A stretch of DNA of 64,000 bases from Arenicellales bacterium (GCA_965200545.1 CBDAUJ010000005.1:25585-89584); one strand, 5' to 3'. Shown: positions 2,767-9,001, counted from the first letter of the stretch. The notes: generated by a model not told the origin, from the letters alone. A program made the numbers and translations.

Positions 2767-4443
2767 ATCCGCGTTAGAGCGACATTTTCGCATCAATTGG
2801 TCGATTTCGGCCTTTTTCGAGCCCGATTTTGCCGTGTCGGTCAGCCGCGGTGAGAAAAATCGGGAATCGGCTTGTCCAAACGGCGCACTGGCGCCGCTTG
2901 GGCAGCCTTTCGGCCCATTCAGTACACGCGCAACCCTCAGCGGAGCGCTGATATCTGTCAGATTGAAAGCGCCGCCGGCAGCGGCGCCGAGTCAGGCGGC
3001 CGGCAGCAGCCGGTCAATGCCATCCATCACCCGATCCAGCAGCAGCCGGTGACGATGCCGCATCCGCAGCGCCGTCTGGCGGGCGTGATGCGCAATCCGG
3101 CCACAAATCGCAAACAGCCGACAGCGTACCGTCGAGGCCCGAGCGCTCTCAAACTCCTGCGGCAGCGTGAAGCGAAACAAAACAGACACGCTGCATGCAA
3201 ACGCACTGAGCGACAGCCGCAGCGCATTGGCCTGATGATCACTGCACGGCATCCGCCCGCTGGCGAAATCCTGCCTCATCTCGCGGATGCGATTCTCGCT
3301 GCATTCGCCACGCCGGCTGTACCAGCGCACGATGCCGCTGTCATCCCAGCCGTCCAGCACATCCAGATTGGTCCCAATCGCACGATACACAGACCGGTCG
3401 CAGTCAATCGTCTGATTGTCCACCCCGCACAGCATCTCCAGCCGCTGCTGAACCGGCCCGCCGTCATCGGCCTCATCTTTCAGACGACGCTGAATCAAAG
3501 CGGCGAGCGCCTCCTCAGCACCGCCCGTCACATGCAGCATGCGCAGCGTCGATTCTTTCTGTGACAGCGCGCCGTCGCGCCGGCGCAGCGGCTGCCAGCC
3601 GCTTTCTCGGCTGCTCGCAATCGCAAACCGAATGTCATCGCAGCTTTTCGCCCGAATCGCACAGCCAATGCCGTGCGCATGGCAATACCCGATGACCTGC
3701 TTTGACCAGCCGGCTGCATCAATGCGCACCCGGGTTACCTTCACCCCCGATGGCAAGGCCCGGATACAGCGCTTGATAAAACCTGAATTGTCATCGTTCG
3801 GCGGGCGATTGCCGCGCCGAAAATCACTCGCCGCCACCTGCCCGGTCTCAGCGATGCGGCCGACCATCGGCATATATCCTCGCTGTCCAAGATAGGTTCG
3901 CCGCGCATGCTTTTTGCCGCACAGCGCCGCGGTCGCATCGATGTCCAGCGTCACCTGACACCGGTCACCCAGCGCCATCTGGATGACTCTCGCATTCAGC
4001 CGCTCCAGCAGCTTGCGGCCCGCACCGCAGCGGCCCAGCGCGTCGGCTTTGGGAATCCGCCGGATGCCCGGCAGCGGCATCAAGCCCCGCTCGGCATGCA
4101 GATGGCGCACATCCTCCAGACACTGCCCGCCCTCAATGAACAGCAGCACAAACACATTGAGAAACTCGCTGGCGCGACAGCCCCGGCTGCTGCCGGCAGC
4201 TGGAAACAGCTGCTCGCACTGCTCGCTCAAACCCAGCTTGGCCATGAAATGCGCCAATGCCGTCAGTCCGGCTCGGGAGGTGAATTTCGCGCCGGTCGAT
4301 TCGCGTCGGTGTGGTACAATCCCCATCAGCCTTGCTCCGTATTCTGGTGATGTCTCACCCAATGGGTGAAACGGATTTAGTTTTCAACCTGTTATATTGG
4401 CAGGGCTTTTCTTGTTTTTGAGTTCTCTAAAGCGGATTTAGGG
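2761..4443 (-). mobile_element. IS1380-family insertion sequence
   Basis: 19-bp terminal inverted repeats ccctaaatccgcgttagag (2761-2779) and ctctaaagcggatttaggg (4425-4443), 1 mismatch; encloses the transposase; GC-richer than its flanks. Confidence 0.88.
2992..4362 (-). CDS. IS1380-family DDE transposase (possibly somewhat degenerate)
   Basis: TSRAGL N-terminus; TLDIDAT, RIDAAG and YSRRGECSENRIRE DDE motifs. Confidence 0.88.
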   Translation of the reverse strand: MGETSPEYGARLMGIVPHRRESTGAKFTSRAGLTALAHFMAKLGLSEQCEQLFPAAGSSRGCRASEFLNVFVLLFIEGGQCLEDVRHLHAERGLMPLPGIRRIPKADALGRCGAGRKLLERLNARVIQMALGDRCQVTLDIDATAALCGKKHARRTYLGQRGYMPMVGRIAETGQVAASDFRRGNRPPNDDNSGFIKRCIRALPSGVKVTRVRIDAAGWSKQVIGYCHAHGIGCAIRAKSCDDIRFAIASSRESGWQPLRRRDGALSQKESTLRMLHVTGGAEEALAALIQRRLKDEADDGGPVQQRLEMLCGVDNQTIDCDRSVYRAIGTNLDVLDGWDDSGIVRWYSRRGECSENRIREMRQDFASGRMPCSDHQANALRLSLSAFACSVSVLFRFTLPQEFESARASTVRCRLFAICGRIAHHARQTALRMRHRHRLLLDRVMDGIDRLLPAA

Positions 4444-5243: not shown

Positions 5244-6699
5244 ATGATCCTTAATTTTGGGTAAAAGTAGAGGAGTAAGCTTTCATTGGTTCTAACATCC
5301 AAAATTTTCCTTGTGATCGAAGTTATAGTTCATTTTTCGGGGTTGCCATCCGACCAAAATATTGAATTGATATTTACGGATTGTAAGGTACTGCAAGTTT
5401 TAACGGAAAAAGACAGCACACCATGCCAGGCTTATCAAGATGCTTGTAGACAGTGCTCGACAAAAAATCAAACTCTCTGATTTTCCGACCAACGTGATTA
5501 ACTGGCCAGCAATGTTGCATTGCCAGCACGAAATCTGTATTCCAGCATATCGGCGTAAAAACTGGAATAAAAATTTACAAGCCTGATATCAGTGCTGCAA
5601 ATGCATGAGTCGCTCAAGAAACCTGGGCTTATTTGCATGTTTTCTGCGAACCTTTTCCAGACGTATGAAGTATTCCTCAGCCGAGCCATTCCTATCAGCC
5701 AATGTCTTTAGATCAGACAGCAATTGAGCCGCGGCATCATAACTTCTGCCGCTTTTGATTTTGAGTTGCTTTTCAACATCTTGCCACGCAGATTCACCTT
5801 TGCGAAAGATTGCATCCAGTCGCTCTTGGTAAACTTGCTGTTCTCTGATTCTGCGCCGCTCTTGCTCGACTTCCCGCTGCTTGCGCTCAGCAACATGGCG
5901 CTCCTCACGAACCTGTTCCGAACGGATACGCAATTCCGATGCGGTTCGATAGGTACGGGCCGCCGAAGCAGAGGCTAGATCAGCATCATTCACTATTTTT
6001 CGAATTTCTAAAACGACATGAGGATCGCCGTCCGCGATCCGGCATAGCAATCTCGTCTTTTCATCATCAGGCATATCTTTGATCGCTGCGTGACTGACCT
6101 TCGCGCCTTTCTTATCATTGGAACTGCCAGCTGGCCCCTCGGCTGCGGCCGCAACCAGATCAGGATCAATTCGGAGAAAATTTGCAAAAGACTTCAGTGT
6201 TGCGTTCAGAGGCCCAATGCCAGGCAGCGGTTCTTTGATCTCATCTCGGAGTCCGCCCTGGTCAACCATCCAGAGCCATGCCAAATAGAGCGCTCGCAAA
6301 TCGCCGGAAAGAATGTCAGATCTGAGCATTGCCATACCTGCAAGCGAATAGGAATCCCCGTCTGAATCATCCCAATAATCGTCTTCTTCAGGACTAGAGC
6401 AGAAGTCAAGAAGCACATTACTCTCCAGCGTCGATTACCTTTAAAATTCCAAATTCATTCAAGAAAGGCTTGAACTGCGACTGATCGACCAGCCGCTGGG
6501 GCAATCGAATCATGAGCTGGCGCGTTCCCCAACTGTTCCAATACAGATGCAGATCAAACCAGCGTCTCATGAATTGATGCACACTGCCCTTAAAGTCTCC
6601 CCAGTGATATTCATTGGCAAAACTTGTTTCTGATATGTTTTAACCTGTTTGTCGTTTCCCGGATTCGTTCAATATACAATAATACTCTGATGAAGAAAA

Positions 6700-6882
6700 G
6701 CAGCAGGTGCGGCCTTGGCGGTGACACTGAGTTGACAATCTGATATGCGTGGGTTGATTACCACATGACTCTGTTGCGTCACGGATCTGCCTCAGTCTGA
6801 TTTCGTGGATCGCATTGGCCATATGGCCAATGCGCCGACCTAGAAACAACGAGGGTTTTTCCATAAGACCTGCACCTGCTGC
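6700..6882 (-). ncRNA. Predicted bridge/seek RNA of the IS1111-type element
   Basis: 11-bp closing stem (6700-6710 with 6872-6882), perfect 24-bp palindrome 6811-6834, and segments matching the element end (6739-6747) and the target flank (6842-6849). Confidence 0.7.
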
Positions 6883-6892
6883 GATTGATCGG

Positions 6893-8128
6893 TCAGCGCT
6901 CAGCCTCGACCTGCAGCCGGCGCAGCTCGTGGCAGCCGATGTCCCAGATGAAGCCGGCCAGCTCGCGGGCGATGGCGGTGACAACGGTTTTGGAGCTCTT
7001 GCCTTTGCGGCACAGCGCCAGATATCGGCCGCACAGTCTTTTCTGGGCCACCCAGGCGCGTTTCACAGCGTATTCGGAAGCGTGCTGCGCCTTGCGCTGG
7101 AGATGTCTGGTGCGGCGTGGCGGATGGCGGTAAGTCCAGGCGCTTTCGGTGAGGATTCTGCGCACTGCGCCATTGCCGGTCCGGGTGATGGCGCCGGTGC
7201 GCCGGCGCGAGCCGCTGCTGAACTCGCTGGGTGTCAGGCCGAGATACGCCATGAACTGTCCGGCGCTGCGGAAGCGGCGCAGGTCGCCGATCTCAGCGGC
7301 CACAGTGACAGCGGTCAGCGTGTCGATCCCGCGCAGGGCGCGCAGCGACTCGACCAGCGGATGGAGTGTCCACAGCTCGCACTGGGCGCCAATGTCGCGC
7401 TCCAGCTCGCTGAGGCGCTGTTCCTGCTGCTCCACAGTGTCCAGGGCGCTGGCCAGCGCAATCTGCTGCGCCGGATGGGAAAACTTCCGGTCTCGCAGCC
7501 AGCTGCGGTGCGCCCGAGTCCACTTGGTTCGGGACCATTGATGACCGTGACGCAGCACAAAATGATTCAGCTGCTGGCGCTGTTTTTGAATACTGCCCTT
7601 GAGGTCGGCGCGCAGGCGCACCAGATCCCGCATGGCCTCCTGCTCGGCATCCGGCACCCACACCGGCGTCAGGCTGCCCAGCGCGGACAGCCGCGCCAGC
7701 TCGCGCGCATCGCGCCGGTCGGTCTTGACCCGGACACCGGGCTTTTTCGGAATCAGCGAAGGCGCCGCCACCTCGCAGCTCACGCCCAGGTCCCGAAGCT
7801 GGCGCCAGATCACAAAGCCGCACGCGCCCGCCTCATACGCCGCATGCACCGACTCGCCGAATTCCTGCCGCAGCCCCTCGATCAGCTTGAGCAGCGCCCC
7901 CGGCCGGTTGGCCACCGTGCCGCGATCCTCAACCGACAGCGGCCGAGACGGATGCGGCCGATACGCCACCGCCACGGCCACCGTGTCCTTGTGAACATCC
8001 AGCCCCGCATGGACCAGCATCCGCCCCGTCGATTCCAAACCCCCGCTGTCACGCTCTCTATAATCTTTCATGCCTGCTCCTCTGGTGGTGGTGAAACGTT
8101 GGAAATACGCATATTCTATATCGCGCAC
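6893..8128 (-). CDS. IS110-family DEDD recombinase/transposase (true start may be downstream, ~8071 or ~8020)
   Basis: GLDVHKD, YEAG and KTDRRDA (DEDD RuvC-like domain); GLTPSEFSSG serine loop; AIARELA C-terminus. Confidence 0.95.
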   Translation of the reverse strand: MRDIEYAYFQRFTTTRGAGMKDYRERDSGGLESTGRMLVHAGLDVHKDTVAVAVAYRPHPSRPLSVEDRGTVANRPGALLKLIEGLRQEFGESVHAAYEAGACGFVIWRQLRDLGVSCEVAAPSLIPKKPGVRVKTDRRDARELARLSALGSLTPVWVPDAEQEAMRDLVRLRADLKGSIQKQRQQLNHFVLRHGHQWSRTKWTRAHRSWLRDRKFSHPAQQIALASALDTVEQQEQRLSELERDIGAQCELWTLHPLVESLRALRGIDTLTAVTVAAEIGDLRRFRSAGQFMAYLGLTPSEFSSGSRRRTGAITRTGNGAVRRILTESAWTYRHPPRRTRHLQRKAQHASEYAVKRAWVAQKRLCGRYLALCRKGKSSKTVVTAIARELAGFIWDIGCHELRRLQVEAER

Positions 8129-9001
8129 TCCCGATAATTTGTGCAGAACAGGTTAAAACATAGGGTCTGTGATATGGGCTCGGCTCGACACGCTTCGCAT
8201 CGCCTTCATATCCTCAGCACTCAGGATGTTGTCGATCGCTCGAAATTCCAAATATTGGTATTCGCTCATAATTGATTCAATCCATAAAGTTGGAGATGTT
8301 CGGATCTTTTTACCAAGACAGGCAAAATTTAATTCACTCGTTCCAGACAAGAAAACGATGGTTTTGCGCACCCAAATTTTGCGACTTGCCGAAATCAGAA
8401 GTCTTGAATGTTAGTTTAGCAAATGTCAATTCTGATTTTTTCACGCACACACCTTTGTTTGAATGACCCGGCCTCCTTAAGGGCCGAGAGAAGCTCAAAA
8501 AGCAAGCTCGCTGCACCACGGCAGAAGATGATCCGATACTATTGGGGTACGCTATAGTTTCTTGCCAAGCTCTGCGACTCAGCAGACCCTCAGGAAGTGG
8601 CCATGTTTTTCGCAATATCGGATTTGTATGGTGCACTCATGCTGAATGATCGCAGTTCCAGCTGCAAGGCTTCGGCAAGAAAGATCTCCATCGACTAGGC
8701 AACGCCTCCATGACCGCCCGCGCATTGGCGCAGAGCCGTATCCGAAAGCGAATGGACAGCATTGTGAATGATAATCCGGAACATCTTCCACAGCTGCGCG
8801 GCACAGCTCAGCCAGGTGACTCGCTTTATCAGCTCGCTGCCCGCAGCGCCGAGCATGGCATAGCGATCTTGGGTCAGCGCAAGGCGTACCAAAATCAGAT
8901 GGCACACCGCCGACAAGCACAGCAACGTATTGGGAGCGCAAAAGATCGCTGCCAATCAAGAGGCTCAATAGAACTCTTTATCGCCACTGTGTACCCTCCA
9001 A

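Follow-up and report, generated by a model that had tools for sequence, protein, structure and literature searches.

Guide RNAs of IS110-family insertion sequences, termed bridge or seek RNAs, were described in 2024, and the recombinases that use them are under development as programmable genome-insertion tools. In the portions of two reports on which we draw here (PMC11187229 and PMC11208160), elements of the IS1111 type carry the RNA downstream of the transposase gene, with the segment matching the top strand lying 5′ of the segment matching the bottom strand (PMC11187229), and the right end of 93% of IS1111s is predicted to carry a bridge RNA (PMC11208160). The IS1111 group has subterminal inverted repeats of 7–17 bp (PMC11208160), and the transposases of the family are 330–350 aa long (PMC11187229). 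Natural redirection of elements through changed guides is known for ISEc11 and ISXne4 (PMC11187229). The locus described here adds no new principle to this picture, the predicted RNA being a clear natural example of a mechanism already known from that year.

The locus lies in a 64,000-nucleotide stretch of DNA from an Arenicellales bacterium (GCA_965200545.1), which we call the window and from whose first letter all positions are counted. In our assessment, positions 6630–8168 are highly likely to hold an active-looking IS110-family element of IS1111-type architecture, with a bridge (seek) RNA of two loops encoded in its right end of 261 nt. The region flagged in a preliminary description, 6633–6892, is the non-coding right end of this minus-strand insertion sequence, the left end being 95 nt long, and this tail very probably encodes a folded guide RNA that directs the recombinase to its insertion site. 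The bridge/seek RNA reading proposed in that description is borne out by several findings: the target guides and the core covary with the flanking DNA, the helices covary, the donor guides match the element’s own ends, and the protein matches the NCBIfam model NF033542. The features of the element are as follows.

6630..8168, minus strand: whole insertion, with a copy of the AG core at both junctions (8168–8167 and 6631–6630, minus strand)
6893..8071, minus strand: transposase / bridge recombinase gene, assigned by Pfam, NCBIfam and PDB sequence matches
8148..8163: left subterminal inverted repeat, 16 bp, exact reverse complement of 6634–6649
6634..6649: right subterminal inverted repeat, 16 bp, pairing with 8148–8163

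The ends were taken from seven copies of the element in the host genome (8 contigs, 3.4 Mb), which are 100% identical over 1532–1545 bp and lie in different flanks. The same genome holds three copies of a relative that is approximately 70% identical (IS-B) and one shortened fragment, the chimera L010. Read in the orientation of the transposase, the left junctions of the seven copies are flank-CAG|ACCCTATG..., while on the right five of the six intact copies have ...ACATATC|AGAAAC(A/T) and the sixth (L006) has AGAAAAGC (AGAAAA). In the remaining copy (L007) the right inverted repeat is broken by another insertion sequence, which encodes a DDE_Tnp_1_4 transposase. The insertion sites have C-AG-AAAC in common, again with AGAAAA at the sixth intact right junction. 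To place the core we compared relatives in which the left junction differs from the right beside AG, such as IS-B (left TT-AG-ACCC, right ATC-AG-AGC) and the relative of type E (left GAA-AG-ACCG, right ATC-AG-TATT). Judged from these junctions the crossover core is the dinucleotide AG, so that the element proper spans 6632–8166 and measures 1537 bp with one core. Between the core and the left repeat lies a 4-nt left-end extension, ACCC (8166–8163, minus strand), which overlaps the edge of the repeat. The insertion splits a host gene, uninterrupted homologues of which read ...SSRAQITSTSFVNEYH... in two genomes of the genus. The host fragments in the window (...SSRAHI and TSFANEYH...) align to these homologues without a gap and the host frame is continuous across the site, confirming a simple insertion at that point.

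The transposase gene likely starts at the ATG at 8071, which follows GAGGAG and gives a protein of 392 aa; relatives begin at the equivalent place, the reading frame is open from 8128, and the conserved core begins at 8020. The protein matches PF01548 (DEDD_Tnp_IS110, E 1.3e-11) and PF02371 (Transposase_20, E 2.7e-20), and scores 232.6 bits against NF033542, ‘IS110 family RNA-guided transposase’, for which the cut-off is 140. This last match covers profile positions 2–338 of 343, and with the frame intact in all seven identical copies it agrees with the preliminary reading of an intact recombinase. Sequence matches in the PDB were to the transposases of ISCro4 and IS621, both distant relatives. 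The segments KTDRRDA and GLTPSEFSSGS align to KTDAVDA and GLTPRRYESGS of ISCro4, with the E, D..D and SG residues paired. RuvC-like acidic motifs are found at GLDVHK, YEAG and KTDRRDA, and GLTPSEFSSG fits the serine motif GL-P----S(t)G as quoted in PMC11187229.

Family placement differs according to whether the layout of the element or its protein is considered. The 16-bp subterminal repeats, and a longer, RNA-bearing non-coding region downstream of the transposase gene, are those of an IS1111 element. The nearest named relative of the transposase is that of ISSso6 (43.8% identity over 96% of the query), and identity to IS4321 and IS5075, the IS1111-group elements of the plasmid collection, is 26.8–27.4% over 84%. 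ISSso6 stands apart from the IS1111A/ISEc11/ISPa11 block in the column order of the source data of PMC11187229, which is an order and not a tree. The label ‘IS1111-type’ used in the preliminary description thus holds for the architecture (subterminal repeats, right-end RNA and guide order); the protein, at 375–392 aa, is longer than the family range, is about 27% identical to IS4321/IS5075 and has ISSso6, and none of the core IS1111 elements, as its closest named relative.

Within the right end, the parts of the predicted RNA were assigned as follows.

6700..6882, minus strand: structured core of the predicted bridge/seek RNA, 183 nt, from single-sequence fold, consensus fold, covariance model and pair counts
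6842..6849, minus strand: putative 5′ target guide UUGUUUCU, pairing with the top strand of the core and right target flank (AGAAACAA)
6811..6834, minus strand: target-loop capping hairpin, a perfect 24-nt palindrome
6796..6803, minus strand: putative 3′ target guide AAAUCAGA, in the same sense as the left target flank and core, pairing with the bottom strand
6766..6774, minus strand: putative 5′ donor guide ACAGAGUCA, whose GAGUC is paired, but for a single A.C mismatch, to the core G plus the left-end extension ACCC
6749..6764, minus strand: donor-loop capping hairpin GUGG-UAAUCAAC-CCAC, the most conserved part of the RNA (helix 6, 97% paired)
6739..6747, minus strand: putative 3′ donor guide CAUAUCAGA, identical to the right-end terminus, core and first left-end base (the circle junction), 9/9

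The minimum free energy fold of 6900–6627 (minus strand) shows a closing stem that bears two arms, and at −87.2 kcal/mol is more stable than any of 200 shuffled sequences (mean −69.5, sd 5.3; z = −3.34). The closing stem is 11 bp long, 6700–6710 (gcagcaggtgc) being the exact reverse complement of 6872–6882 (gcacctgctgc), as had been proposed. What had been called a 24-bp hairpin at 6811–6834 is indeed a perfect palindrome of 24 nt, but as an RNA it forms a stem of roughly 10 bp capped by a loop of 4 nt. All four of the guide-like segments named in the preliminary description were found where it had placed them. Two match in full: 6842–6849 reads agaaacaa (RNA uuguuucu) and equals the minus-strand flank at the right end (6631–6624) at 8/8 positions, and 6739–6747 reads tctgatatg (RNA cauaucaga), which is also the sequence of 6630–6638, the element end plus core (9/9). 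The other two match less well, with aaaucaga (6803–6796) agreeing with the left flank at 5/8 positions in the window copy and at 8/8 in another copy (L004), and acagaguca (6774–6766) matching the donor at 6/9, a score that results from the single A.C mismatch of GAGUC to ACCC. The target guides UUGUUUCU and AAAUCAGA lie on either side of the hairpin and have AG(A) of the predicted target AAATCAGAAACAA in common, and CAUAUCAGA is kept together with the right end CATATCAG in relatives.

A search of 6000–8800 of the window against 4227 Rfam families gave no match at E up to 1. A promoter and terminator scan of 6500–8300 gave nothing on the minus strand, and the non-coding region has no terminator-like site on that strand. 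No sigma-70-like promoter was seen ahead of the RNA, within the left end or across the circle junction as computed; when this junction, the left end and the final 700 nt were scanned, the sole promoter-like match was a weak TTTTCT-17-TATATT, which sits in the right end on the downstream side of the structured RNA. For ISEc11, PMC11187229 likewise describes no promoter except one formed at the circle junction. None of the public runs listed as containing the window element is recorded as RNA.

To compare guides with insertion sites we collected relatives by a protein-based scan with one genome per species, which gave 13 loci in metagenome-assembled genomes (MAGs) titled Arenicellales or Gammaproteobacteria. 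A search with the donor-hairpin motif, allowing one mismatch, found 17 of 243 genomes of the order, compared with 2 for a reversed control pattern. The non-coding ends have a scaffold in common that reads CCUCG, an 8-nt guide, a hairpin, CCACG, a second 8-nt guide and CNGAGG, in which the guides differ. Each related type has a 5′ guide of its own, and the right flank follows the reverse complement of that guide, as shown by the following types.

IS-A (the window element), guide reverse complement AGAAACAA: right flanks AGAAAC(A/T)N in five of six, AGAAAAGC in the sixth
IS-B, guide reverse complement AGAGCATG: right flanks AGAGCATC, AGAGCATG and AGAGCGAC
D1, guide reverse complement AGATTCAA: right flanks AGATTCAC, AGATTCTC and AGATTCAG
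D3, guide reverse complement AGATTTGA: right flanks AGATTTGA, AGATTTTT, AGATTTCT and AGATTGTT
E, guide reverse complement AGTATTAT: right flank AGTATTCT
G, guide reverse complement AGAATGAA: right flank AGAATGTG
H, guide reverse complement AGTTTAAT: right flank AGTTTGAA
J, guide reverse complement AGCCCGAA: right flank AGCCCGGA

The association was put to a permutation test on loci L001–L068, in which guides and junctions were extracted with one regular expression, junctions fetched twice were collapsed, and rows without a recognisable junction were omitted on that side only, leaving 11 guide types. On the right side (six positions beyond the core, 11 types) flanks matched their own guide at 4.05 of 6 positions and the guides of other types at 1.88, the observed value being reached in 0 of 100,000 permutations. 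On the left side (five positions, 7 types) the own 3′ guide matched at 3.01 of 5 positions against 1.62 for others, which 3 of 100,000 permutations reached; on both sides these figures are not true probabilities, since the guide types are related by descent. As guide and flank go together in 11 types, the guide–flank matches are more than chance would give, and the covariation on which the guide-RNA reading depends is present for the target guides. Poor fits were noted for D2, whose own guide matches at 2.33 of 6 against 1.97 for others, and for the chimera L010 (2.0 against 2.4); in one D2 copy (L028) the D3 guide is a better fit to the flank than the copy's own guide. Every 5′ guide has CU as its last two bases, complementary to the AG core.

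Matching is uneven along the guides. Over 26 right junctions the guide agrees with the flank at positions +1, +2, +3 and +4 in 24, 22, 26 and 18 cases, and at +5 and +6 in 11 and 8, while over 22 left junctions it agrees at −1 and −2 in 21 and 18 cases and at −3, −4 and −5 in 9, 9 and 7. By this profile, natural insertions of the lineage agree dependably with the guides over only approximately 8 bp, from −2 to +4 on either side of AG. The suggestion in the preliminary description that the window insertion is an imperfect-target event does not hold as a peculiarity of this copy: six of the seven copies match the left guide at 5 or 6 of 8 positions, L004 alone matching at 8/8, so that an ‘imperfect target’ is the rule in this lineage.

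The pairing of the RNA is conserved along with its guides. RNAalifold on eight types predicted the closing stem and the target arm, with compensatory changes in 11 of 42 pairs. We then built a covariance model, R1 (193 positions, 51 pairs), and re-aligned to it 17 matches in 23 loci. In these 17 sequences 87.2% of paired cells are filled by pairs, compared with 76.1% in shuffles and 31–42% when the partners are slid, and double changes occur in 35 of the 51 pairs, compared with 10–13 when slid; none of 500 shuffles reached any of the measures, though the alignment used for counting is fitted to R1’s own structure and so favours it. Helix 4, the target-loop hairpin, differs in sequence among types while keeping its pairing (double changes in 10 of 15 pairs), and P7, the stem closing the donor arm, has double changes in 5 of 7 pairs.

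With a view to genome annotation, R1 also finds the RNA in 6 of 150 sampled genomes from other families of the class and in ISSso6. Two of these six genomes are flagged as unpublished, and only the tally of 6/150 rests on them. Inspected by eye and kept apart from the permutation test, six of these distant matches gave a 5′ guide agreeing with the right flank at 6/8 positions in L078, L080 and L081; L078 and L081 have an AA core, and their guides end in UU instead of CU. By the same inspection L077 and L083 showed no guide–flank match and L084 no recognisable right end.

It is possible, though we regard it as unlikely, that only the target arm (about 80 nt, 6803–6882) is the functional seekRNA, with the protein recognising the ends by way of their subterminal inverted repeats and the match of CAUAUCAGA being a mere DNA repeat of the end. 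In ISEc11 an 82-nt seekRNA alone supports transposition, and does so better than a 154-nt form (PMC11187229). In the elements studied here, relatives hardly vary in the 3′ donor guide or the right-end terminus, which thus show no covariation, and this limits the evidence from covariation in the donor loop to pairs of the 5′ guide and the left-end extension, and in the window element this 5′ guide carries its mismatch. Against this, the 5′ donor guide tracks the 4-nt extension in three variants: GGGUC occurs with ACCC (types D and H), CGGUC with ACCG (type E), and CUGUA with GCAG in ISSso6, so that ACCC/GGGU, ACCG/CGGU and GCAG/CUGU change together. The left boundary of ISSso6 was fixed independently of the guide, as the sequence common to other copies starts 4–5 bases before the core and the match to empty sites extends as far as the core. 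The strong conservation of the donor arm and the double changes in its closing stem P7 likewise argue for a donor loop that works as part of the RNA. This covariation of the donor guide with the left end is relevant to the question of whether, like IS621, elements of the IS1111 type recognise the donor by means of RNA.

A second alternative, that the element is a dead relic whose RNA signature is historical and whose seven copies were spread by other means, such as duplication or recombination, appears very improbable. Neither an empty-site joint nor a circle joint was seen in the contigs of four public runs, in which neither would show reliably, and one copy (L007) is interrupted while the shortened chimera L010 exists. 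Set against these points are seven copies that are 100% identical, with unrelated flanks, core-flanked junctions and a common target motif that fits the guide, and a reading frame that is full length by NF033542. In the contigs of the same four runs the depth of the element is about 4–5x that of its flanks. The remaining alternative, that the right end is nothing unusual, being a structured 3′ untranslated region, a terminator or an end to which protein binds, and that the flank matches are coincidental or reflect a target preference set by the protein, would be in keeping with the lack of Rfam matches and the shortness (8–9 nt) of the matches in any single sequence, but is scarcely credible when guides differ among close relatives and the flanks follow them (on the right side beyond all 100,000 permutations), when guide ends switch from CU to UU along with the core, from AG to AA, in L078 and L081, and when the non-coding region has no terminator-like site on the minus strand.

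Returning to the two-loop bridge RNA, which we prefer, a mechanism can be proposed by analogy with described systems. On excision the element would form a circle, its right end connected to its left end through one AG core, and the recombinase would bind the RNA. The donor loop would hold the circle junction, with CAUAUCAGA pairing to the bottom strand of the right end and core, while on the top strand GAGUC would pair to the core G followed by the left-end extension ACCC. The target loop would hold the insertion site, with UUGUUUCU pairing to the top strand AGAAACAA and AAAUCAGA to the bottom strand opposite AAATCAGA. Strand exchange at the AG core would then leave AG at both junctions. That the RNA is made and bound by the protein, and that the reaction passes through a circle, we infer from the published systems (IS621, and ISEc11 and its kin); the natural series of guides, together with published experiments on other elements, likewise suggests that changes in the guides would retarget the element.

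We also put forward, tentatively, that the ISSso6-like clade may be a separate lineage, one that combines a long IS110-like transposase with IS1111-like inverted repeats and a right-end two-loop RNA, and that reads about 8 bp (−2 to +4 around AG) of a guide capacity of 13 nt. If so, sister copies within one genome would be retargeted by 1–3 guide substitutions, as in the D1/D2/D3 series, and copies might move in trans by the RNA of a neighbour, as the fit of the L028 flank to the D3 guide could indicate. Whatever its standing as a lineage, the locus offers a natural series of at least 11 guide variants on a near-constant scaffold, with their insertion sites, in related marine bacteria, and this series shows which guide positions matter in nature, namely the core AG, +1 to +4 and −1 to −2.

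Among known systems, the window element can be compared with ISPpu9 of Pseudomonas putida, an IS110-family element which has an invariant AG recombination dinucleotide and a small-RNA gene downstream of the transposase gene (PMC12288879). ISPpu9 differs in that it is classed in the IS110 group without inverted repeats, targets REP sequences, and is described there as forming no junction promoter (PMC12288879). The RNA of IS621 (Durrant et al. 2024, PMC11208160; structures 8wt6 and related) has, as here, a target loop and a donor loop, each with left and right guides, around a core dinucleotide. The IS621 RNA, by contrast, is encoded ahead of the gene in the left end, and IS621 has inverted repeats of just 2–3 bp (PMC11208160). 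Its protein shares the DEDD/RuvC-like domain and the Tnp domain with the catalytic serine motif, although similarity to the window transposase is weak (E 1.6e-6 over 74 residues). The core dinucleotide of IS621 is CT, and that of the window element AG.

Similar in architecture are the seekRNAs of ISEc11, ISKpn4, ISPa11 and ISPst6 (Siddiquee et al. 2024, PMC11187229), which share with the window element an RNA downstream of the transposase gene and subterminal repeats, a top-strand guide 5′ of the bottom-strand guide, overlap of the two guides at the insertion point, a target arm of about 80 nt, and relatives redirected in nature by altered guides. These elements differ in having transposases of 330–350 aa and RNAs that co-purify with the protein, the RNA of the window element being a predicted one. 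The closest named relative is ISSso6 (ISfinder), found on Shigella and E. coli plasmids and annotated ‘IS110-like element ISSso6 family transposase’, with a 375-aa transposase, 14-bp subterminal repeats and an AG core. Our search for published experimental work on its RNA returned none; in the two 2024 papers, as far as their supplements were covered, ISSso6 is named solely in tables of sequences and source data. ISSso6 has other guides and another target, a left-end extension of GCAG where the window element has ACCC, and an enterobacterial plasmid as host, while the relatives of the window element are in environmental MAGs titled Arenicellales. Across this distance the non-coding region downstream of the ISSso6 gene matches R1 at 50.2 bits (E 4e-11), and its 5′ target guide UUAGCGCU fits its own right flank AGCGTTAA at 7/8 positions.

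Besides the seven identical copies of IS-A, the IS110-family insertion sequence studied here, its own genome carries a second related element, IS-B, which is approximately 70% identical and present in three copies (L008, L009 and L011). Guides specific to IS-B (CAUGCUCU and AUAUUAGA) were found, and copy L011 is missing 122 bp within the transposase gene. A truncated fragment was also located close to one of the IS-A copies:

L010 1493-1940 (own genome C3:456.3 kb): truncated fragment, 1.7 kb from IS-A copy L005

The transposase gene of L010 is reduced to its final 62 codons, which are accompanied by a chimeric non-coding end. In this end the target arm, with guide AAUUUAGA, is similar to those of IS-B and the related type H, while the sequence from the donor 3′ guide onwards is identical to IS-A; pairing of the closing-stem strands is lost. 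L010 looks like a recombination product of two element types.

Small guide differences were also observed between two other related types, as D2 (L028, L029, L058) and D3 (L047, L062, L065, L068) differ at three positions within the 5′ target guide and at little else. The right flank of D2 copy L028, AGATTTTT, is a better fit to the D3 guide than to its own. This would fit either a guide that drifted once the copy had inserted or mobilisation in trans by the RNA of another copy. In type-E copies (L030-L032, L046, L057, L061; genome G098), conservation of the flanks extends past 40 nt on either side, and the target of type E is therefore a repeated host sequence. IS-A copies, by contrast, lie in unrelated flanks.

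In the window, IS-A splits a host gene:

5589-6627 and 8170-8371, minus strand: host gene interrupted by IS-A

Proteins of this family are about 380-440 aa long, and a Pfam search with the three window fragments of the split gene gave zero matches. Members of the family were found in 9 of 30 further genomes from the genus, and some of these gave two matches with approximately 1 kb between them. The window gene has a further break, with a stop near 6418 and the frame picking up again at 6416; because this adds to the IS-A insertion, the gene is a pseudogene twice over.

A second mobile element has the terminus CCCGAATCCGAAAT and codes for a DDE_Tnp_1_4 transposase. The CCCGAATCCGAAAT motif has five exact copies in the own genome.

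L007 / L050 (own genome C2:186.7 kb): second mobile element inserted into an IS-A copy at its right inverted repeat
L034 2790-2830 (other genome): near-identical element end CCCAAATCCGAAATTAGG within a type-E copy's donor loop
L008, left flank: CCCGAATCCGAAAT motif at a distance of 20 nt from the left end of this IS-B copy

It may be that these IS110-family elements are preferred as targets of the second mobile element. The minus strand of the window also holds, at 2992-4362, a 456-aa ORF whose DDE_Tnp_1_4 domain (E 1.7e-34) marks another insertion sequence, 2.3 kb from IS-A.

One sequence variant of IS-A was noted just upstream of the transposase start:

Window 8083: 3-base deletion, seen in a single contig from run X3, which belongs to a different study

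At the bases corresponding to a TTGACA hexamer of its relatives, IS-A in the window has ACGACA, and the distance from there to the left-end TATGTT is too long. In several relatives (L042, L078, L080, L081, L094) the hexamer is perfect and occupies the right inverted repeat's inner edge, where the –35 half of a promoter formed at the circle junction is expected to lie.
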